A stretch of DNA of 17,046 bases, taken from IMG/VR virus record IMGVR_UViG_2651869780_000020, positions 1-17,046 of that record. The stretch is one strand, 5' to 3'. Of the stretch, positions 3,886 to 14,429 are shown piece by piece; the stretch's first letter is position 1, and every line of letters starts with the position of its first letter. Position numbers and translations under genes: made by a program. Origin of the DNA: a virus (lineage: Duplodnaviria > Heunggongvirae > Uroviricota > Caudoviricetes). The notes under the pieces were generated by a model. The model made no database searches, was not told the origin of the DNA, and saw nothing but the letters and a program-made list of their open reading frames with translations.

Positions 3886-5304
3886 ATGCCGATTCAGCAA
3901 CTTCCGCTTATGAAAGGTGTCGGCAAAGACTTTCGAAACGCCGACTATATCGACTATCTGCCAGTGAATATGTTGGCAACCCCCAAAGAAATCCTGAACA
4001 GCAGCGGATATCTTCGCTCATTCCCGGGCATTGCCAAACGCTCTGATGTGAACGGTGTATCGCGCGGCGTCGAGTACAACATGGCGCAGAATGCTGTTTA
4101 TCGTGTCTGTGGCGGCAAGCTCTACAAAGGCGAAAGCGAAGTCGGTGACGTCGCCGGAAGTGGTCGCGTATCAATGGCCCATGATCGGACATCACAGGCG
4201 GTAGGTGTTAACGGGAAACTGGTCGAGTATCGCTATGATGGCACGGTTAAAACAGTCTCAAACTGGCCAACAGACAGCGGATTCACGCAGTATGAATTAG
4301 GTTCGGTCCGTGACATTACGCGCTTACGTGGGCGTTATGCGTGGTCAAAAGACGGAACTGATTCATGGTTTATCACTGACCTTGAAGACGAATCGCATCC
4401 TGACCGCTACAGCGCACAATATCGCGCAGAATCGCAGCCGGACGGAATCATCGGTATCGGCACATGGCGAGACTTCATAGTCTGCTTTGGTTCATCAACG
4501 ATTGAATATTTCTCCCTGACTGGTGCAACCACAGTTGGTGCCGCTTTGTATGTCGCACAACCATCACTGATGGTGCAAAAAGGCATTGCCGGAACTTACT
4601 GCAAAACGCCGTTTGCTGACTCGTATGCGTTCATCAGCAATCCGGCAACAGGTGCGCCGTCTGTATACATCATCGGCTCCGGTCAGGTATCACCAATCGC
4701 CAGCGCGAGCATTGAGAAAATCCTCCGCTCCTACACTGCTGATGAACTGGCTGATGGCGTGATGGAATCGCTGAGATTTGATGCGCATGAACTGCTGATT
4801 ATCCATCTTACGCGCCACGTCCTCGTGTACGACGCATCTTCAAGCGCCAATGGTCCGCAATGGTGTGTACTGAAAACAGGCCTGTATGACGATGTGTACC
4901 GCGCTATCGACTTCATTTACGAAGGCAATCAGATAACGTGCGGCGATAAGCTGGAATCCATGACAGGGAAATTGCAATTCGACATCAGCAGCCAGTACGA
5001 CAAGCAACAGGAACATCTGCTGTTTACTCCTCTGTTCAAAGCGGATAACGCCAGAGTGTTCGACCTTGAAGTTGAATCGTCAACTGGAGTTGCGCAGTAC
5101 GCTGACCGCCTTTTTCTCTCTGCAACCACTGACGGCATCAATTACGGGCGTGAGCAGATGATTGAGCAGAATGAACCGTTCGTTTACGACAAACGCGTTT
5201 TGTGGAAGCGTGTCGGGCGAATAAGGAAAAATGTCGGCTTCAAATTGCGCGTTATCACTAAGTCACCTGTCACTCTCTCAGGCTGCCAGATAAGGATTGA
5301 GTAA
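3886..5304 (+). CDS. Tail hub / head completion protein, P22 gp10-like
   Basis: 472 aa, the same length as P22 gp10 as recalled, in the syntenic position between gp4 and the tail needle. RBS gaggtg at 3876-3881. Confidence 0.8.
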
Positions 5305-6005
5305 TGGCGGATTCGAATCTCAATGTGCCGGTAATCATTCAGGCTACACGGCTCGACACATCAGTCCTTCCACGCAATATCTTCTCGCAGTCGTATCTGC
5401 TTTACGTTATCGCACAGGGCACTGATGTTGGTAACGTGGCTAACAAGGCCAACGAGGCCGGACAGGGCGCTTACGATGCTCAGGTGAAAAACGATGAACA
5501 GGATGTCGAACTGGCTGACCACGATGCAAGAATCACCGCAAACACAAAAGCGATAAATCTCCTTGAGGTCAGGTTAACAACCGCCGAAGGGAAGATAGTC
5601 GTACTGCGTAGCGATGTTGATTACTTGCTGGATGAGGTTATCGATATTCAGGCGCATCTGGTCACTGTTGACCAAAGACTGGATGGCGTAGAAAGCGATG
5701 TATCTGACATTAAGAGTGATTACGTATCGAAAACCGTAACCGAATCGCAGTCTCTTGCGTCACCGCTGGATGTAAAAACATCATATTCAGTTGATGGAAT
5801 TCAGGTTGTTGGAGCAAGAAATACCGGATGGACTGCAGCCACAGGTACACCTCTTCTTGGCTCATTCAACGCTAACCAGTCATACACGGTCGGCACTACG
5901 TACACACAATCCGAAGTCGCGGCTCTCGCTACAGGTTTGCAGCAGGCGCGGCAGCGTATTCTGGCGCTTGAAACAGCACTTAGATTACATGGGCTGATTG
6001 ACTGA
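5304..6005 (+). CDS. Tail needle protein, P22 gp26-like
   Basis: 233 aa. N-terminus [43 protein letters not shown] and C-terminus ..ALRLHGLID are highly similar to P22 gp26 as recalled; coiled-coil heptads in between. Start overlaps the gp10 stop (TAATG). Confidence 0.9.
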
Positions 6006-6460
6006 TGATTACATTCAAACCAACGCGAAACATCGACCTGATCGAAGCAGTCGGAAATCACCCTGACATTATTGCCGGGAGCAACAACGGTGATGGATAC
6101 GACTACAAACCTGAATGCCGTTACTTTGAGGTGAACGTGCACGGGCAGTTCGGCGGCATTGTTTACTATCAGGAGATTCAGCCGCTGACATTCGATTGCC
6201 ACGCCATGTACCTGCCAGAGATTCGCGGCTTCAGCAAGGAAATCGGTCTGGCGTTCTGGCGATACATTCTGACTAACACCACCGTTCAGTGCGTCACATC
6301 GTTCGCTGCACGTAAATTCCGCCACGGTCAGATGTACTGCGCAATGATTGGCCTTAAGCGTGTAGGAACCATCAAGAAATACTTCAAAGGCGTGGATGAC
6401 GTGACGTTTTACAGCGCAACACGCGAAGAACTAATCGACTTCCTGAATCACGGGAGATAG
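6005..6460 (+). CDS. gp14-like protein (head assembly / ejection-associated)
   Basis: 151 aa in the P22 gene-14 position between the tail needle and gp7. Start overlaps the gp26 stop (TGATG). Assignment is by synteny and size only. Confidence 0.65.
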   Translation: MITFKPTRNIDLIEAVGNHPDIIAGSNNGDGYDYKPECRYFEVNVHGQFGGIVYYQEIQPLTFDCHAMYLPEIRGFSKEIGLAFWRYILTNTTVQCVTSFAARKFRHGQMYCAMIGLKRVGTIKKYFKGVDDVTFYSATREELIDFLNHGR

Positions 6461-6462
6461 CC

Positions 6463-7158
6463 ATGTTATATGCATTTAAGCTGGGCAGAAAACTGCGCGG
6501 CGAGGAACCTTATTGCCCTGAAAAAGGCGGGAAAGGTGGCAGTTCTGATAAAAGCGCAAAGTATGCAGCAGAAGCTCAGAAGTATGCCGCAGACCTGCAA
6601 AATCAGCAGTGGCAGACGATCATGAAAAACCTTGCTCCGTTCACGCCACTCGCTCAGCAGTACGTATCACAATTGCAGAATCTTTCCTCTCTTCAGGGAC
6701 AAGGTCAGGCACTTAACCAGTATTACAACTCTCAGCAGTACAAAGATCTTGCTGGTCAGGCTCGCTATCAGAGTCTGGCTGCAGCGGAAGCAACAGGTGG
6801 ATTGGGTTCCACTGCAACCGGTAATCAGTTAGCAACAATCGCACCAACGCTTGGTCAGCAGTGGCTGTCTGGTCAGATGAACAACTACCAGAATCTGGCA
6901 AATATTGGTCTTGGCGCACTGCAAGGTCAGGCAAACGCCGGGCAGACATATGCCAACAACATGAGTCAGATTTCGCAGCAAAGTGCGGCTCTTGCCGCTG
7001 CTAATGCCAATAAACCATCAGGTCTTCAGACAGCAATTAGCGGCGGAGCTTCAGGGGCTATGACTGGCGCTGCTCTTGGCTCTATTGTTCCCGGACTTGG
7101 CACTGGATTAGGTGCGGCAATTGGCGGCGGACTTGGCCTGCTTGGATCGTTGTTTTAA
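6463..7158 (+). CDS. Ejection (injection) protein, P22 gp7-like
   Basis: 231 aa versus about 229 aa for P22 gp7. Gln-rich low-complexity middle and a Gly/Ala-rich hydrophobic C-terminus (GAALGSIVPGLGTGLGAAIGGGLGLLGSLF) consistent with a membrane-inserting ejection protein. RBS gggaga at 6452-6457. Confidence 0.8.
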   Translation: MLYAFKLGRKLRGEEPYCPEKGGKGGSSDKSAKYAAEAQKYAADLQNQQWQTIMKNLAPFTPLAQQYVSQLQNLSSLQGQGQALNQYYNSQQYKDLAGQARYQSLAAAEATGGLGSTATGNQLATIAPTLGQQWLSGQMNNYQNLANIGLGALQGQANAGQTYANNMSQISQQSAALAAANANKPSGLQTAISGGASGAMTGAALGSIVPGLGTGLGAAIGGGLGLLGSLF

Positions 7159-7167
7159 GGGGTAATC

Positions 7168-8574
7168 ATGGCTACTTGGCAAGGAACAAATGGCGGATTG
7201 TTGGCTGGTATCGGTGGTGTCAACTCAAACGCTCCGAGCGTAAATGACATCGGCAATACGCTTCAGCTTATCAGACAGAACAATGATATTGAGCGTTCAG
7301 GCGCTAACAATGTTGGGCTGACTGCTTTGCAAGGTCTTTCAGGTATTGCGGGGGTGTTTCAGCAGGAAAAGCAGGCTCAGCGGCAGAAAGAATTTCAGCA
7401 GGCATACGCTAATGCTTATGCGTCTGGTGATCGCGGTGCTTTGCGTCAGTTGGCTACTCAATATCCAGACCAGATTGAATCCGTTCGTAAAGGCATGGGA
7501 TTCATTGACGAAGACCAGCGCAATTCTATCGGCACCTTAGCGGCTGGCGCACGCCTTGCGGCCTCGTCTCCAGAAGCAATGCAATCATGGCTGCAAAACA
7601 ACGCCAAGGAACTGGCGCGCGTCGGTGTTGACCCTAATAACGTTGCTCAGATGTATCAGCAGAATCCTTCAGGATTTGGTGAGTTTGTTGATCACCTTGG
7701 GATGGCTGCGCTTGGTCCGATTGATTACTTCAATGTTCAGGACAAGATGGCTGGTCGTGAGATTGACCGAGGCAGACTGGCAGAGACAATCCGCAGCAAT
7801 CAGGCTGGAGAAGCACTTCAGGCGAGAGGGCAAAACCTTTCCTATCAGTCAGCAATGACTGGGCACAATATCGCAGCACAACGCTTGGCTCTGGATCAGC
7901 AAGAGTTCGGGTTTAAGATGCAGCAAGCGCAGGAAAAGGCTCAGCAGTTGATTAGCGAAGCACCTAAGCTGTCAGTAAACATGGAAAAAGGCATCGAGAC
8001 GGCTGTAAACAATGCTACAGCATCATCAAACTCAGCCAATTCTATGAGTGCGCTTGCTCAACAGTTCAGAGCAGAAAAACCAACGACAGGTTTGTTCGGT
8101 AACGCACAGAACATGTTCGCAAAACTTACCGGAAGCGATACAACATTGCGTGATTTGCGCATCCGCCAAAATGCCCTTGTTAACAGTCAGGTTCTTAAAT
8201 TCCTACCTCCAGGCCCCGCAACGGATAAAGACGTTGAGATCGTTCGGCAGGGTGCACCAACTGACATGGATAACCCTGAGACGGTCGCAAGATGGCTTGA
8301 TGCGATGGCAAACCTTGAGCGACGAAACGCGCAGTTTAATGAGTTTAAAGCCGAGTGGATGAGCGCGAATGGCAATCCAGGACAATCGCGTAATGGCGGT
8401 CAGATATTGGGGTTGGATGTTAAAAAAGGTGAATCATTGGGGAGTGCCGTTAAGCGGTATATGTCAATGAATACTGACGCAGCGCCAGCACAAGATTCGA
8501 CACCTTCAGGAGAACCACGGAATCAGGTTGGATCATATACCTCAAAATCAGGCATTCAATTTACGGTGGAATGA
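7168..8574 (+). CDS. Ejection (injection) protein, P22 gp20-like
   Basis: 468 aa versus about 471 aa for P22 gp20; syntenic; RBS aagggg. Stop overlaps the next start (ATGA at 8571-8574). Confidence 0.8.
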
Positions 8575-10697
8575 TGAAAGTAACTGCAAACGGTAAGACA
8601 TTTACCTTCCCTGATGGTACGAGCACGGAAGATATTGGCACCGCCATTGATGAGTATTTTGCTGGTCAGGCTGTTCAGCAACAAACAGTTAATCAGGCCA
8701 ATAATGAACCAGCACGTGAAGAACCATCATTGATGCAACAAGCTGGCGATTGGCTCACAGGTGGTCAAAGTGCAGGGCAAATTGCAGAGCAGGCTGGTCG
8801 TGGTCTGGTAAACATACCATTTGACGTATTGCAGGGTGGCGCAAGTCTGATTAATGCAATCAGCCAGGGGCTTGGTGGCCCCAAGGTTTTGGATGATGTT
8901 TATCGCCCTGTCGATCGACCGACAGACCGTTGGGCGCAAGCCGGTGAAACATTTGGTGGGTATCTCCTGCCAATTGGCACAGCGGCAAAAGCTGCTGGAG
9001 CGACAGCAAAGCTCGCAGGAGACATCGGTTCCGCAGGAAACATGATTGCAGGTTCTCTTGCTGATGCTGCAAATCAGAAGGGTGATTTTGCACAAAATGC
9101 TGCCATTAACGGTGGTATCAATATTGGTGCTCAAGGCGTTCTTTCAGGTGTCGGGCGCGTTATTGCGCCAAGGGTTTCACAGGCTCTTGGTGGTGCAGCA
9201 CTGAATTCTGCTAATGATGTTTCCAGGATGGCAAAGTCAGGTGCTGGGCGTCAGTCAATTGCCAGTCAGGCCGCTAATGTGTCCGAAGATGTAGCAAAAG
9301 CGGCTGAGTCTGCTGGAATTGATATAAACGCATTAACACCAGGAATGCGATCTGGAAGTCGTGGAATTGCACAAGCCGAAGGCGCATTGGCATCAACACC
9401 AGGAATTGTTCAGGACGCCCATCAGGCAGCATTTAACGAAATATCATCAAAGTTAAGTCGAAACCTTGATGAATTTGGGGCCGCATCTGGAACGGCATCA
9501 GAAAAAAGTGCGGCTATAAAACAAAGGATTCTTCAAAATCTTGAACAGATGAAGGATGCCGAGCGCGCGGCATGGGATGACGTGCGGTCAACAATGCCAA
9601 ATCAAAAAGCAAGAATGCTAAATGGTAATGCCGTTATTCAGGCAGAGCGATCTGCTGGCATACCGCTTACTCCTGAAATGAAACAGTTTGTTCAGGCAAA
9701 CAATCAAGGTGGAGTAACATTTGATGGCATGAAAGCATGGAGAGCGAAATTTGCTGATGCGGAGCAAAAATATAAGCGTAGCGGAGAGGCAAATGCGGCA
9801 AGGAGAGCAGGGGAAATACGCCGGGCAATTACTGATGATATGCGCACAATGGCGGAAAACGGCGGATTTCTTGATGACTGGCAGAAAGCTAATGATCTGT
9901 CTAAAGCGAGGTTATCAGCACAAGAGAGTGCAGAGTCTGTTTTCGGGCGTGATTTGGCAACAGATGCACTGATTACGAATGGAGTAAAATCCCTTCAATC
10001 ATCGTCAGCTAAAGGTCTTAATGGCCCTGCTGGGTTCCATTCTATGATCCGCGCGCTGCCAGAATCAGAGCGTGTTCCTGCTATATCATCAATGTTGCAA
10101 GACGCTATCTCGCATGGTGTACGTGGTGGCAAAGCTGATGCAGCAGGAATTAACCATATCGCAGGGATACTTACCCCACAAAATGTAAAAGCCATTAGCA
10201 GATATTCCTCAGAACTCGGAAGAATTGCTGATGCATATGGCACTCTTGCAAGAGCAGCAGTGAAACCTCAGCAGTATATTGAAAGAACAGGGAGAACTGC
10301 CAATGTACTACGCGATCTGGATGCTGGTTTATCCAACGTCACATCAACAGTGTTAAATGCAATTGCCAACTCAACATCAGGTGCCATTGTTGGTGGCGCT
10401 GGAGGGGGTATTGCAGGCGCTGCCGCGGGTGCTTTAGTTGGCGCTGGGTTAAAAGGCGCTGTATCTAAAATTGCCACCACACGTAGTGGCCGATATGCGA
10501 TAGAGAAAGCTGTTCAGGAAGCCACCAAAGCAGTAAGAGCAGGCGGAAGTAAAGAAGCATTAGCGGCTGCGGAACGCAGATTTATGGCAAATAAGGCCGC
10601 CGTAAAAGCAATACGCGAGGCACTAGGAAACGAAGAGTTCCAGCGTTTAGCAAGAGCTGGAATTGTGGCATCGCTAAGCGGAATGGCACAGGAGTAA
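8571..10697 (+). CDS. Ejection (injection) protein, P22 gp16-like
   Basis: 708 aa, last and largest of the three ejection proteins. Gly/Ala-rich segments. Translationally coupled to gp20. Longer than P22 gp16 (about 609 aa as recalled). Confidence 0.8.
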
Positions 10698-11102
10698 TTA
10701 GTCATCCATGGATGGATTGAGCTTATCTCGTGTTGATGTGGCAATTTTCCCAACATTTTTCAACCAAGATTTTAAGAAGGATATGTCGTCCTTAATATCA
10801 TGAATATCCTCATTCTTTATACGATCAACCTTATCCTCTAAGCTCTCTATAGAACGCTCAATGCTAGACAGAGAGATTTTTAAGTCCCCTTGCTCACGTT
10901 CCAGTGAGGATTTGAGAGCACAATATTCGTTTTCTAGAATTCCTATTTTTTTTGTTAGAGAGTGCATTCGATACTCATACACCAAACCAGAAACGACTAA
11001 TGCAGCCAACAGAAACCATTCAAGCACACCAACCTCCTTAGTTTTGAGCAGGATACCAGATGATAATGTGTAGTTGGAGTAGCGCGGTTGTAATGCAAGC
11101 AT
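10698..11102 (-). CDS. Hypothetical membrane-anchored coiled-coil protein (candidate superinfection-exclusion function, P22 sieA position)
   Basis: 134 aa. One predicted transmembrane helix (LEWFLLAALVVSGLVYEY) followed by a heptad-rich charged segment (LENEYCALKSSLEREQGDLKISLSSIERSIESLEDKVDRIKNEDIHDIKDDISFLKSW). AT-rich. Convergent with gp16 with abutting stop codons (TAATTA at 10695-10700). No obvious SD sequence. No family recognised. Confidence 0.55.
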   Translation of the reverse strand: MLALQPRYSNYTLSSGILLKTKEVGVLEWFLLAALVVSGLVYEYRMHSLTKKIGILENEYCALKSSLEREQGDLKISLSSIERSIESLEDKVDRIKNEDIHDIKDDISFLKSWLKNVGKIATSTRDKLNPSMDD

Positions 11103-11182
11103 TTTGTTTTAGTTTTATGCTTGCTTGTATGTGTGTACAGTGTATATAATGCAAGCATACATCACAACAAAGGTGCTTGCAT
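11093..11182. repeat. Four copies of a 9-10 bp near-palindromic motif in alternating orientation: ATGCAAGCAT (11093-11102), ATGCTTGC (11117-11124), ATGCAAGCAT (11149-11158), TGCTTGCAT (11174-11182)
   Basis: Read directly from the sequence. The copies form two imperfect inverted-repeat units of about 32 bp, spaced about 56 bp apart. Copy 1 overlaps the start codon of the - strand membrane protein; copy 2 overlaps the -35; copy 3 abuts the -10; copy 4 lies between the RBS and the ATG of the 322-aa gene. Confidence 0.6.
11121..11150 (+). promoter_or_regulatory. Sigma70-like promoter for the 322-aa accessory gene
   Basis: TTGCTT (11121-11126), 18-bp spacer, TATAAT (11145-11150); RBS aggtg at 11171-11175; ATG at 11184. 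Confidence 0.55.
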
Positions 11183-11183
11183 T

Positions 11184-12152
11184 ATGACTGAAAAGAAAAG
11201 TGGCGAAGGGAAAGCTAAGGGCGGGATCGCTCGCGCAAAGTCGCTGACTAAAGAGCAGCGTTCTGAAATAGCAAAGAAAGCAGCTGCTGCAAGATGGAAA
11301 AGTAAGATTCTCAGGGCAACTCATCGTGGTAACTTTTTAGATGATTTTGGCATTGATGCTGAATGTTATGTACTGGATGACGAGTCGAAAACTGTCGTTG
11401 TTACGAAAACTGGATTATCTCAGTTGCTAGGGATTGGTGAACATGCCAGGGATTTAGATCAACTGCTTGGCGCTCAGTATATGAGCAAATACCGAGATCT
11501 AGAATTGCAGCGAAAAATGGAAAATCCCTATAAATTTCAACTTACTTCGAAGTCTAAAACCGTTCATCAAGCGTTAGGTTATGACATTACAGCAATTGTT
11601 GATATTGGTAGGGCACTAATAGAAGCCAAAGATAATGACGATCTACCACAATCACGGTTAAAGGCAGCCGCCGCAGCACAGAGACTTATTAATGCCTCCG
11701 CTAAGGCGGGAATTAAGGGGGTTGCGTATGCGCTTGCTGGTTATCGTCCAGAAGTTCAGGCTGTCATTGACGAGTTCAAAGCGTTTGTTCGTGAAGAGGC
11801 TCGTCAATATGAAAAGGAATTTCCAGATGAGCTATACGAGGAGTGGTATCGACTGTACGGCCTGAATAGGCCAGAGAAAGGACGGCCTATTCGTTTTGGG
11901 CAGCTAACCAACATGCAGATATACACCCCGCTAGCAAAGAGTAAAGGTAAAATCCTTGAACAGATTCGAGCCAGCCGAGACGAGAACGGAAAACAATCTG
12001 ATAAGTTGCATCTGTTCCTTTCTGAAATTGGTGTCAAGGCTTTGCGTCAGCATATCGGTAAGCTTCTTGGTGTCGCAGCGATGAGTGAGACAAGAGAAGA
12101 ATACGAAAAAGGAATAGAAAAGGTTTTCGGAAGAATGAAACCAGAAATCTAA
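11184..12152 (+). CDS. Hypothetical 322-aa accessory (moron) protein with a basic N-terminal helix-turn-helix-like motif; function unknown
   Basis: Long ORF with its own promoter and a strong terminator. The TTG start at 11121 in the ORF track is rejected in favour of ATG 11184 (MTEKKSGEGKAKGGIARAKSLTKEQRSEIAKKAAAARW..). The remainder is a charged, helical-looking domain. Not part of the conserved P22 structural set. Confidence 0.75.
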   Translation: MTEKKSGEGKAKGGIARAKSLTKEQRSEIAKKAAAARWKSKILRATHRGNFLDDFGIDAECYVLDDESKTVVVTKTGLSQLLGIGEHARDLDQLLGAQYMSKYRDLELQRKMENPYKFQLTSKSKTVHQALGYDITAIVDIGRALIEAKDNDDLPQSRLKAAAAAQRLINASAKAGIKGVAYALAGYRPEVQAVIDEFKAFVREEARQYEKEFPDELYEEWYRLYGLNRPEKGRPIRFGQLTNMQIYTPLAKSKGKILEQIRASRDENGKQSDKLHLFLSEIGVKALRQHIGKLLGVAAMSETREEYEKGIEKVFGRMKPEI

Positions 12153-12157
12153 TTATG

Positions 12158-12183
12158 AAACCCACCGTCAGGTGGGTTTTTTG
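12158..12183. terminator. Intrinsic terminator, probably bidirectional
   Basis: aaacccacc (12158-12166), loop gtca, ggtgggttt (12171-12179), T-run to 12183; A-rich on the upstream side. Lies between the convergent 322-aa gene (+) and the 67-aa gene (-). Confidence 0.8.
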
Positions 12184-12543: not shown

Positions 12544-12729
12544 ATGACCATAGAAGAACGCCTGAACAACATTGAGTTGAACCAAACCCTGCTTGACCAG
12601 CGACTTTCAGATCTTGAGCTTAAAGATCTTGATGCGCAAATATCAGAAGCAGAAGCCAAGCTCTCCAGCTTAAACCACCGCAAGAAGCAAATCCGCAACA
12701 GAATTACTCAGGGACGCGGAAGCTGTTGA
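12544..12729 (+). CDS. Small coiled-coil protein (61 aa)
   Basis: ATG 12544 preceded by a strong SD AAGGAG (12533-12538) at 5-nt spacing; the GTG at 12496 in the ORF track is rejected. Sequence MTIEERLNNIELNQTLLDQRLSDLELKDLDAQISEAEAKL.. is heptad-like. The 3' end overlaps the convergent 69-aa ORF by 26 nt. Confidence 0.5.
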   Translation: MTIEERLNNIELNQTLLDQRLSDLELKDLDAQISEAEAKLSSLNHRKKQIRNRITQGRGSC

Positions 12730-12913
12730 GGTGGGATGCTAGGTCTCTATCGTTAAAATCAAGGCTGCTAATCATTTCATTGTAAATGGCGTTTTTATCT
12801 TCCATTGGCAGTCTTGAGTAAACCAGACACAGAGCATATTTCAGGGAGTTTAGCTCTTTCTCTAGCTCTTCCTTGCTTGACGTTGTTGACTTAATAAACT
12901 GTTTTTTATTCAT
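12704..12913 (-). CDS. Hypothetical 69-aa protein, translationally coupled downstream of mnt
   Basis: On the - strand its ATG overlaps the mnt TGA stop (ATGA at 12910-12913). No recognisable family. Confidence 0.45.
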   Translation of the reverse strand: MNKKQFIKSTTSSKEELEKELNSLKYALCLVYSRLPMEDKNAIYNEMISSLDFNDRDLASHLNSFRVPE

Positions 12914-13161
12914 TTTGCATCCTTACCATACATGGTCTTTAGCGTCTCAACATCGTGTTCAAGATCTATCAATCGTGATGCTATAGTTGCAAGGTCTAGT
13001 GCTTGAATGTGTTTATTTTTTTCGGTCCACGCTTCAAGTGCCGCGACCATCTCAGCATTTAATGAACGAGAATTAGCCTCAGCCAGTTCAATAAGACGTT
13101 CCTTTATCTCTACAGGAAGCCTCAGATTCACTTGAGGGTTTTTGTACTTACGATCAGACAT
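12910..13161 (-). CDS. mnt: Mnt-like ribbon-helix-helix repressor (Arc/MetJ superfamily)
   Basis: 83 aa, the same length as P22 Mnt as recalled. N-terminus ..NLRLPVEIKERLIELAEANSRSLNAEMVAALEAW matches the RHH beta-strand/helix pattern of P22 Mnt (..FRMPMEVREKLKFRAEANGRSMNSELLQIV..). Divergent from arc. Confidence 0.8.
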   Translation of the reverse strand: MSDRKYKNPQVNLRLPVEIKERLIELAEANSRSLNAEMVAALEAWTEKNKHIQALDLATIASRLIDLEHDVETLKTMYGKDAK

Positions 13162-13423: not shown

Positions 13424-13472
13424 AAAGAAATCAAAACAGTGAAGCCCCAACTGCGGGAACAGTCAGGGCTTC
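13424..13472 (-). terminator. Intrinsic terminator oriented for leftward (- strand) transcription in the arc-ant spacer
   Basis: Stem GAAGCCC (13441-13447) / GGGCTTC (13466-13472) with an inner ACTG/CAGT helix. On the - strand it is followed by ACUGUUUUGAUUUCUUU (complement of 13424-13440). No U-run follows it on the + strand. Confidence 0.55.
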
Positions 13473-13505
13473 GGTATCGTAAAACCACGCATAGGAATTA
13501 ACGAC
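13424..13505 (-). ncRNA. Predicted sar-like small antisense RNA, complementary to the ant ribosome-binding site
   Basis: Inferred from a - strand promoter inside the ant 5' end (see 13512-13540) plus the - strand terminator at 13424-13472. The predicted transcript of about 80 nt is antisense to the ant SD (agga 13493-13496) and start region, analogous to the P22 Sar RNA. Ends are approximate. Confidence 0.4.
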
Positions 13506-14429
13506 ATGAAAAGTATAGCAACAGCAGTATCTACTATCAATGTACCATTCCACGGCGCAGAGCTTTATGTTGTCAATCACAACGGCGAACCGTATACCCC
13601 AATGAAACCTATCGTTGAGGGAATGGGGCTAGACTGGAAATCTCAACATAAGAAGATTTCTCAACGCTTCTCGAAGGGTATGGTGGAAATCACCATACCT
13701 TCTGCCGGTGGGGTGCAAGCCATGATTTGTATGGCTTTACGAAAATTGGCAGCTTGGTTGAACAGCATCAGTCCTAACAAAGTCCGCCCTGAAATCCGCG
13801 ACAAGGAAATCCAGTATCAGGAAGAGTGTGACGATGTGCTCTACGAGTACTGGACTAAAGGCCATGTAGTTAACCCACGCAAAGCTAAAAAGGCGTTGCC
13901 GGGTAAAATCACCACTGAACAGCAGGAAGCCATTAAACAACTCGTCATGAGTCGCGGTCAGTCTCTGCCAAAAGAAAAACAGGCTAAGGCGATGATCACC
14001 ATGTGGTCGTCACTGAAATCTCATTTTGGGTGTTCATACAAAGAAATCAGCGATGAGCAGTTTACCGAAGCTCTGTCACTTGCAGCTCGCGTTCCGCTTG
14101 AAGGCGAGTTAATCGGCAAACAAGAGAAGAAAGCAAACGAGCTTTCTGCAAAAGAAGCAAACAGCCTTGTATGGTTATGGGATTATGCCAACCGCTCACA
14201 GGCATTATTCCGCGAACTGTATCCGGCGCTAAAACAAATTCAATCGAACTATTCCGGCAGATGTCATGACTGCGGTTATGAGTTCTCCCGTATTATCGAT
14301 ATGGCGAGAGATGTTTTAATCAACCATACACGAGATGTTGATATTAATGAGCCAGACGGACCAACGAATCTTTCCGCATGGATGAGACTTAAGAATAAAG
14401 AATTACCTCCTTCAGTACATAACTACTGA
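13506..14429 (+). CDS. ant: Antirepressor (Ant-like)
   Basis: 307 aa versus about 300 aa for P22 Ant. Located directly downstream of arc. N-terminal pattern (..VPFHGAELYVV..GEPYTPMKPIVEGMGLDWKSQHKKI..) is reminiscent of phage antirepressor N-terminal domains. Followed by a terminator. Confidence 0.7.
   Translation: MKSIATAVSTINVPFHGAELYVVNHNGEPYTPMKPIVEGMGLDWKSQHKKISQRFSKGMVEITIPSAGGVQAMICMALRKLAAWLNSISPNKVRPEIRDKEIQYQEECDDVLYEYWTKGHVVNPRKAKKALPGKITTEQQEAIKQLVMSRGQSLPKEKQAKAMITMWSSLKSHFGCSYKEISDEQFTEALSLAARVPLEGELIGKQEKKANELSAKEANSLVWLWDYANRSQALFRELYPALKQIQSNYSGRCHDCGYEFSRIIDMARDVLINHTRDVDINEPDGPTNLSAWMRLKNKELPPSVHNY
13512..13540 (-). promoter_or_regulatory. Psar-like leftward promoter inside the first codons of ant
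   Basis: On the - strand: TTGATA (complement of 13535-13540), 17-bp spacer, TATACT (complement of 13512-13517); the predicted start is near the ant ATG. Confidence 0.5.

Follow-up and report, generated by a model that had tools for sequence, protein, structure and literature searches.

The window analysed here, the whole 17,046-nucleotide stretch of the tailed-phage record IMGVR_UViG_2651869780_000020 (IMG/VR), is the late region of a P22-like (Lederbergvirus) Escherichia coli prophage. At 11184-12152 on the plus strand it carries a gene for a 322-amino-acid (322-aa) protein with a P63C domain (Pfam PF10546; E = 7e-14, 52.7 bits against a gathering cut-off of 26.1), and four copies of an 8-10 bp motif are packed into 90 bp overlapping the promoter of this gene. 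P63C-domain proteins (phrog_2384, no assigned function) are common in proteobacterial prophages, and the 322-aa protein has 1682 homologs. In the literature searched, there was no account of such an array, of a specific operator for the P63C family or of P63C function.

The array and the predicted promoter

Relative to a predicted transcription start at ~11157, site 1 (11093-11102, ATGCAAGCAT, with the core TGCAAGCA) lies at about -64 to -55 and site 2 (11117-11126, ATGCTTGCTT, core TGCTTGC) at -40 to -31. Site 3 (11149-11158, again ATGCAAGCAT) extends from -8 to +2 and covers the predicted start, and site 4 (11173-11182, GTGCTTGCAT) falls at about +17 to +26, between the Shine-Dalgarno (SD) sequence and the ATG. 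TGACAGCA denotes a mutated form of the core TGCAAGCA. An earlier note on this DNA, made from its letters alone, had described four alternating copies forming two imperfect inverted-repeat units about 56 bp apart, and rereading the sequence bears this out, with the 10-mer of site 4 placed at 11173-11182. A distance of 56 bp separates copy 1 from copy 3 and copy 2 from copy 4, the array has its centre of two-fold symmetry at 11137.5, and each unit is an inverted pair, GCAAGCAT-N14-ATGCTTGC, with a centre-to-centre distance of ~23-24 bp. Because the motif is itself a near-palindrome, ATGC-WW-GCAT, 'alternating' refers to the central AA or TT alone. Site 2 fits the palindrome-like consensus ATGCWWGCAT at 8/10 positions, and its 8-mer ATGCTTGC at 11117-11124 is exact.

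The layout over the -35, beside the -10 and between the SD and the ATG is as the earlier note had it. The predicted -35 hexamer, TTGCTT (11121-11126, plus strand), lies inside site 2 and is separated by an 18-bp spacer from the predicted -10 hexamer, TATAAT (11145-11150, plus strand), the last two bases of which are the first two of site 3. The SD sequence AAAGG (11169-11173, plus strand) abuts site 4, which ends 1 nt ahead of the ATG at 11184. A consensus promoter scan with a threshold of 4/6 matches did not pick up this promoter because its -35 matches at just 3/6 positions; the promoter was deduced from conservation instead. In alignment A2, which comprises 36 diverse upstream regions of homologs, the TTG of the -35 is invariant, the -10 positions T-12, A-11, A-8 and T-7 are at least 90% conserved, and a purine-rich AAGG or AGAG stands at the SD position. 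The same design recurs at three betaproteobacterial loci (L008-L010), with TTGCWT in site 2, a 17-bp spacer and TAnAAT ending in site 3. Thus, the sites overlap the predicted core promoter at two conserved places, site 2 at the -35 and site 3 at -10/+1.

The abundance of the motif in the full window is unremarkable (8 matches with at most one mismatch, against 4.7 expected), and the evidential weight therefore lies in clustering and conservation. At least four matches within 100 bp were obtained in none of 2000 dinucleotide shuffles of the window, nor did any of 20000 shuffles of the intergenic region (156 bp) yield four matches. In vB_EcoP-611R6 (hereafter 611R6), the nearest phage record, the complete genome (45.9 kb) contains no second cluster and no exact copies outside the array, which argues that the motif is not a regulon-wide operator.

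Conservation of the sites and the question of RNA pairing

Homolog loci were gathered from genomes, viral contigs and metagenome assemblies, and the DNA before each start codon was read. The resulting census covers 93 distinct upstream regions, 90 of them belonging to proteins that carry an N-terminal basic module (described below). The core, as TGCAAGCA or TGCTTGCA, stands before 90/90 of these module-bearing homologs, with at least two sites in all 90 and at least four in 83. Across the 93 regions the start-to-start spacings are 22-24, 31-32 and 23-24 bp, and the recurring order is GCAAGCAT, ~14 nt, ATGCTTGC, ~22 nt, (TATA)ATGCAAGCA, ~15 nt, TGCTTGCA, 0-3 nt and the ATG. At the 44 four-site loci the core of site 4 ends -1 to +3 nt from the ATG, and in 36 of them the central dinucleotides run AA, TT, AA, TT. 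Alignment A2 shows four blocks that are invariant or nearly so, separated by spacers that vary freely: GCAAGCA of site 1 is invariant or almost so, GCTTGC of site 2 is invariant, and in site 3 TG.A.GCA is invariant and the other two core positions are at least 90% conserved. A rare core variant, TGCAGGCA, was seen at a Mixta locus (L007).

The array is retained at 30-35% protein identity (P0166, P0177 and P0140), and it is present at loci of Gallionella and of Alcaligenaceae and Burkholderiales metagenome-assembled genomes, all Betaproteobacteria, as it is in E. coli. When viral contigs were scanned blindly for TGCAAGCA-N12-18-TGCTTGCA, 120 loci were returned, 65 of which adjoin a P63C open reading frame (ORF), with another 2 cut by contig ends. 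The gap lengths of the P63C-adjacent matches peak at 15-16 nt; the remaining matches have flat gap lengths and lie mostly within unrelated genes, as expected by chance. This deep conservation of sequence, order and spacing before homologs shows that the sites are functional. The search for motif and spacing in related elements, which the earlier note had suggested, thus found both, in the same order and at the same distances, and its proposal of control sites dedicated to the cassette, in an operator-like layout, gains support from them.

Three viral contigs (L042, L087 and L089) have two sites alone, which lie 45 nt ahead of the P63C start. Such arrays look like the products of 56-bp deletions between direct copies (1/3 or 2/4), with the -35 and -10 removed. 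The three cassettes adjoin an apparent tRNA 3' end (GGTTCGAATCC), possibly a prophage attachment site, as judged by sequence reading.

A conserved array of inverted repeats could act in DNA or in RNA. As RNA, hairpins 1:2 and 3:4 (or 1:4 and 2:3) would form in transcripts entering from upstream, for example by read-through of the late operon, and would sequester the SD and AUG, such that translation would be restricted to transcripts from the gene's own promoter. Late transcription in P22-like phages must, as is generally known, traverse this region toward the tailspike gene; site 4 lies between the SD and AUG in every homolog; and the 116-nt region is very stable as RNA (-46.2 kcal/mol, z = -6.5). 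However, inverted repeats yield such folding automatically. Helices 1:2 and 3:4 show no covariation above shuffles, 157 of 500 of which reach the score, and the core of site 4 carries uncompensated changes (TGCTTACA six times and TACTTGCA three times). Transcription is predicted to start within site 3. The folding of the 5' untranslated region, proposed earlier as a check, gave a divided answer: the full 116-nt region folds stably, but the predicted leader from ~11157 is unstructured (z = +1.25). Site 1 is preceded at 10-20 nt by a terminator in most of the other contexts, so read-through does not apply generally. An Rfam scan of 11086-11191 gave sub-threshold noise alone, with no family. Taken together, hairpins that sequester the ribosome-binding site, as the earlier note had allowed for, are unsupported; we regard a translational switch of this kind as very unlikely, and RNA pairing as at most a side effect. 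Because it is the sequence that is conserved rather than the pairing, recognition by a protein is indicated, and the array is very probably a protein-recognised promoter element.

Candidate binders of the array

The gene occurs in unrelated contexts, always with the array, so that whatever binds it must be universal or come from the cassette itself. In lambdoid Klebsiella prophages the gene lies directly behind a cI-type repressor gene, and elsewhere it lies beside insertion sequence (IS) elements. As the lambdoid and IS-adjacent contexts lack mnt and arc, the proposal that Mnt or Arc binds the array is not sustained; the mnt/ant promoters of the window and of 611R6 contain no copy of the motif. 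CI, Cro and other phage repressors were likewise rejected, in view of the absence of further copies in the related genome and of the differing immunity regions. There is nevertheless a likeness to the Mnt and Arc operators of P22 immI (Pant/Pmnt), where short palindrome-like operators lie over divergent or compact promoters and are bound by small oligomeric self-regulating repressors (PMC2629481). The neighbourhood is also the same 'ant moron' region, with an mnt-like gene, ant and the sar RNA in the window. However, the motif differs, four sites are present here in place of one operator per repressor, the P63C array moves into elements without mnt or arc, and the putative binder is a 322-aa three-module protein rather than a ribbon-helix-helix protein.

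The sites accompany the family of the 322-aa gene alone and, within it, just those homologs that keep the N-terminal basic module. The protein appears to consist of three modules: this basic N terminus, a weakly Bro-N-like middle and the C-terminal P63C domain. The earlier note had called the protein helix-turn-helix-bearing, but there is no recognisable helix-turn-helix, and Pfam gives P63C alone. The candidate DNA-binding part is instead the N-terminal two-helix module (residues 9-39, coding positions 11208-11300 on the plus strand; GKAKGGIARAKSLTKEQRSEIAKKAAAARWK), with helices at 10-20 and 23-39 in AF2 (AlphaFold2) models. Its pattern, GKAKGGxARAxxLTxEQRxEIAxKAAxARW, includes columns that rank among the family's most conserved. 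A PDB profile search placed the module beside the N-terminal tail of histone H2A (GKQGGKARAKAKTRSSRA) at chance level (E = 0.41). The middle domain has many weak Foldseek matches to Bro-N and antirepressor-N models and to Mx8 p63, which are weak hints that it may resemble a Bro-N or antirepressor-N DNA-binding domain. The P63C domain was reportedly first described by Iyer, Koonin and Aravind in 2002, among Bro-N/KilA-N viral proteins. The 322-aa protein shares with the Bro-N, KilA-N and antirepressor-N viral proteins a modular architecture, the C-terminal P63C domain and these structural matches, but differs from them in that Pfam gives it neither a Bro-N nor a KilA-N match, even at E <= 1.

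Five families of homologs that lack the module (P0127, P0141, P0200, P0148 and P0181) have zero sites upstream. In addition, comparison of a second locus (L094, 3845-4993) with the window (11028-12152) shows 98-100% identity over the operators and the first ~36 codons and ~50% over the remaining gene, and therefore the operators and the module were inherited as one block. The P63C gene of L094 thus contains a mosaic joint; in the same prophage, the P63C gene and mnt are separated by a gene for a ClpP-like protease. Since the module is highly conserved, the module-less families have no sites and the L094 block was inherited as a unit, the cassette's own protein is favoured, and it is plausibly the most economical candidate for the binder.

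On this basis, we propose with moderate confidence that the array consists of operators through which the P63C protein would repress its own promoter. The sites would be built into the sigma-70 promoter of a self-contained P63C moron, with site 2 supplying the -35, site 3 starting in the -10 and covering the start, site 4 lying in the early transcribed region and site 1 standing ~60 bp upstream. A sequence-specific DNA-binding protein occupying these sites would block RNA polymerase; the cassette product may do so as an oligomer, through its basic two-helix module and possibly also the Bro-N-like domain. The predicted outcome would be low, self-limited expression wherever the cassette lands. 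In kind, this is an ordinary autoregulated promoter; what is new is the motif, the symmetric four-site geometry and the regulator family. Widely spaced inverted half-sites bound by a multi-domain oligomer have a parallel in NikR, which recognises GTATGA-N16-TCATAC. The unit of the P63C array is also an inverted pair at fixed spacing, but the P63C protein has no found homology to NikR or to other ribbon-helix-helix proteins, and its two units are arranged symmetrically around a promoter.

Several points weigh against autorepression by the cassette's own product. We infer both that this product is the binder and that the effect is repression, and the choice of repression over activation is drawn solely from the position of the sites. 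The -35 fits the consensus at only 3/6 positions, and the start at ~11157 is a predicted one. Homologs lacking the module are located within operons, where a separate promoter is not needed, and this alone could account for the absence of sites before them. Finally, a family of ~78-aa proteins bears the same basic module at its C terminus, and the four-site array was not found upstream of the genes of this family that were examined; specificity may therefore depend on more than the module. Before the ~78-aa genes, ATGCTTG or CAAGCAT occurs 10 times against 1.1 expected, in related sequences and partly overlapping -35 elements; this enrichment is modest and non-independent, and we take it as a lead only. 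Three cases show a -10, then GCAAGC or GCTTGC, then the ATG.

The ~78-aa genes appear leaderless, with TAnnnT 6-7 nt ahead of the ATG, and in metagenome loci (L232-L311) a strongly conserved GGTAGTG(G/T)(G/C)TCAGTTTGAA stands 70-80 nt upstream of them.

The cassette protein could also bind the sites without simple autorepression, acting as an activator or architectural protein, or in an iteron-like manner in replication or recombination. Sites 1 and 2, at about -60 and -36, occupy typical activator positions, the -35 is weak (3/6 matches), the symmetric four-site layout recalls iteron or recombination-site arrays, and two of the variants noted above (L042 and L087) appear to have lost 56 bp between direct copies. 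However, sites 3 and 4, on -10/+1 and at +17 to +26, are placed as repressing sites would be, the host elements carry replication and integration modules of their own, and such deletions are expected from homologous slippage between 10-bp direct repeats. We therefore consider a non-repressing role of this type quite unlikely.

The remaining candidate is a conserved host transcription factor or nucleoid protein, such as a MarR/SlyA-like counter-silencer, which would couple the moron to host physiology. The core GCAAGC matches exactly the middle of the palindromic consensus proposed for SlyA and RovA (MarR family), TTAGCAAGCTAA, and AT-rich, horizontally acquired promoters are typical SlyA/H-NS targets (PMC5797941); moreover, the cassette protein has no recognised DNA-binding domain. 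The specificity of SlyA, however, lies in TTA-N6-TAA (PMC5797941). The sites of the array lack these flanks: they read AAT-GCAAGC-ATA and match 1/6 SlyA flank positions, and their invariant outer T and A (TGCAAGCA) stand against the A and T of SlyA (AGCAAGCT). On these flanking bases SlyA was rejected as the binder. The array is kept in Betaproteobacteria, outside the Enterobacterales, whereas SlyA and RovA are understood to belong to an enterobacterial lineage. A host regulator would also be expected to have other targets, but the motif pair is almost confined to the neighbours of P63C genes, and the presence of the sites goes with that of a module in the cassette's own protein. For these reasons, control by a host factor appears unlikely.

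A bolder extension of the autoregulation hypothesis can be offered only tentatively. The stretch KGGxARAxxLTxEQRxEIAxKAAxARW may be an undescribed, sequence-specific DNA-binding element that reads CAAGCAT/ATGCTTG half-sites and gives both P63C and the large ~78-aa family built-in autoregulation. The cassette might then be a widely travelling, self-limiting accessory gene in the exclusion or defence slots of P22-like and lambdoid prophages, insulated by its array. The 90-bp control region has hardly changed as the protein diverged to 30% identity. It offers the first testable handle on the P63C family: the DNA target is defined, the promoter is predicted and one module is a candidate for DNA binding. 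Binding of the protein to its own array would assign a biochemical activity to the P63C family, and the array would then represent a compact, portable, autoregulated expression unit with a new small DNA-recognition module common to many proteins. If its own protein is not the binder, the array would mark a host factor that controls horizontally acquired genes in two proteobacterial classes.

The cassette and its neighbourhood

An intrinsic terminator (12158-12183, plus strand; AAACCCACC-GTCA-GGTGGGTTTTTTG; -20.9 kcal/mol, z = -3.5) directly follows the stop codon of the P63C gene. The window is 99% identical to 611R6 across 10600-12182. Homology to HK620, which spans gene 16 and hkcB, ends at ~11058. 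As the terminator and the identity with 611R6 end at the same place, 11059-12182 (plus strand) is delimited as a mobile promoter-gene-terminator cassette, that is, a moron. It has its own predicted promoter and its own terminator, it is flanked by homology breaks (~11058 against HK620 and ~12182 against 611R6), and it is found in various slots and phages; in a second P22-like E. coli prophage, the P63C gene lies in the same slot as in the window. The 'ant moron' stretch is highly variable among P22-like phages (PMC2629481). In its breaks, own promoter and intrinsic terminator, and in its occupation of exclusion or conversion gene slots (the sieA position, or behind cI in lambdoid Klebsiella prophages), the cassette resembles other phage morons, for example those in lambdoid late operons. 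We take these two positions, in P22-like phages and lambdoids respectively, to be places of exclusion genes. Morons are generally described with simple promoters, whereas a deeply conserved four-site operator array is integral to the P63C cassette.

Homologs of P22 genes 10, 26, 14, 7, 20 and 16 occupy 3886-10697 (plus strand), and are followed by an hkcB-like gene on the minus strand (10698-11027, 109 aa; phrog_5962) that lies outside the cassette and whose product has a membrane helix at its N terminus and a coiled coil. The earlier note had the array covering the start codon of this divergent membrane protein gene, which probably reflects an artefact of ORF calling. Among the possible starts of the longest ORF on the minus strand (10698-11102, 134 aa), site 1 covers just the first ATG, and this ORF, the long form of which appears in the 611R6 record, is probably over-extended. 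A start at the GTG at 11027, preceded by an SD sequence (AAGGAGG), is most likely and accords with the HK620 annotation of 110 codons. The PHROG profile, 109 positions long, covers residues 2-109 of the short form, and the long form's 25 extra codons fall past the HK620 homology break.

Downstream of the cassette, ~750 bp past 12183 are absent from 611R6 and include a 69-aa ORF (12704-12913, minus strand; phrog_16466) that lies downstream of mnt. An Arc/Mnt-type, mnt-like gene (12910-13161, minus strand), a sar antisense RNA (13438-13504, minus strand; Rfam RF00262, 76.6 bits, E = 1.5e-15) and ant (13506-14429) together make up an apparently complete immunity I region, and the tailspike gene follows at 14530-16569.

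Some members of the P63C family stand in other surroundings. At one locus (L312, 103-2005), an IS1595-type transposase gene identified by Pfam is followed immediately, with an overlap, by a module-less homolog, and at two others (L103 and L105) the upstream ORFs look transposase-like by sequence reading, with no Pfam match. This suggests a second, IS-associated lifestyle of the family. At the upstream edge of the cassette, a segment of ~56 bp that sits just before the hkcB start and crosses the HK620 break (11025-11080) is 91-100% identical in the otherwise unrelated E. coli phages E212, phiv205-1, JEP4 and EC.P3 and also occurs in many E. coli genomes. With no annotated gene there, this segment could be a recombination joint or the promoter region of hkcB.

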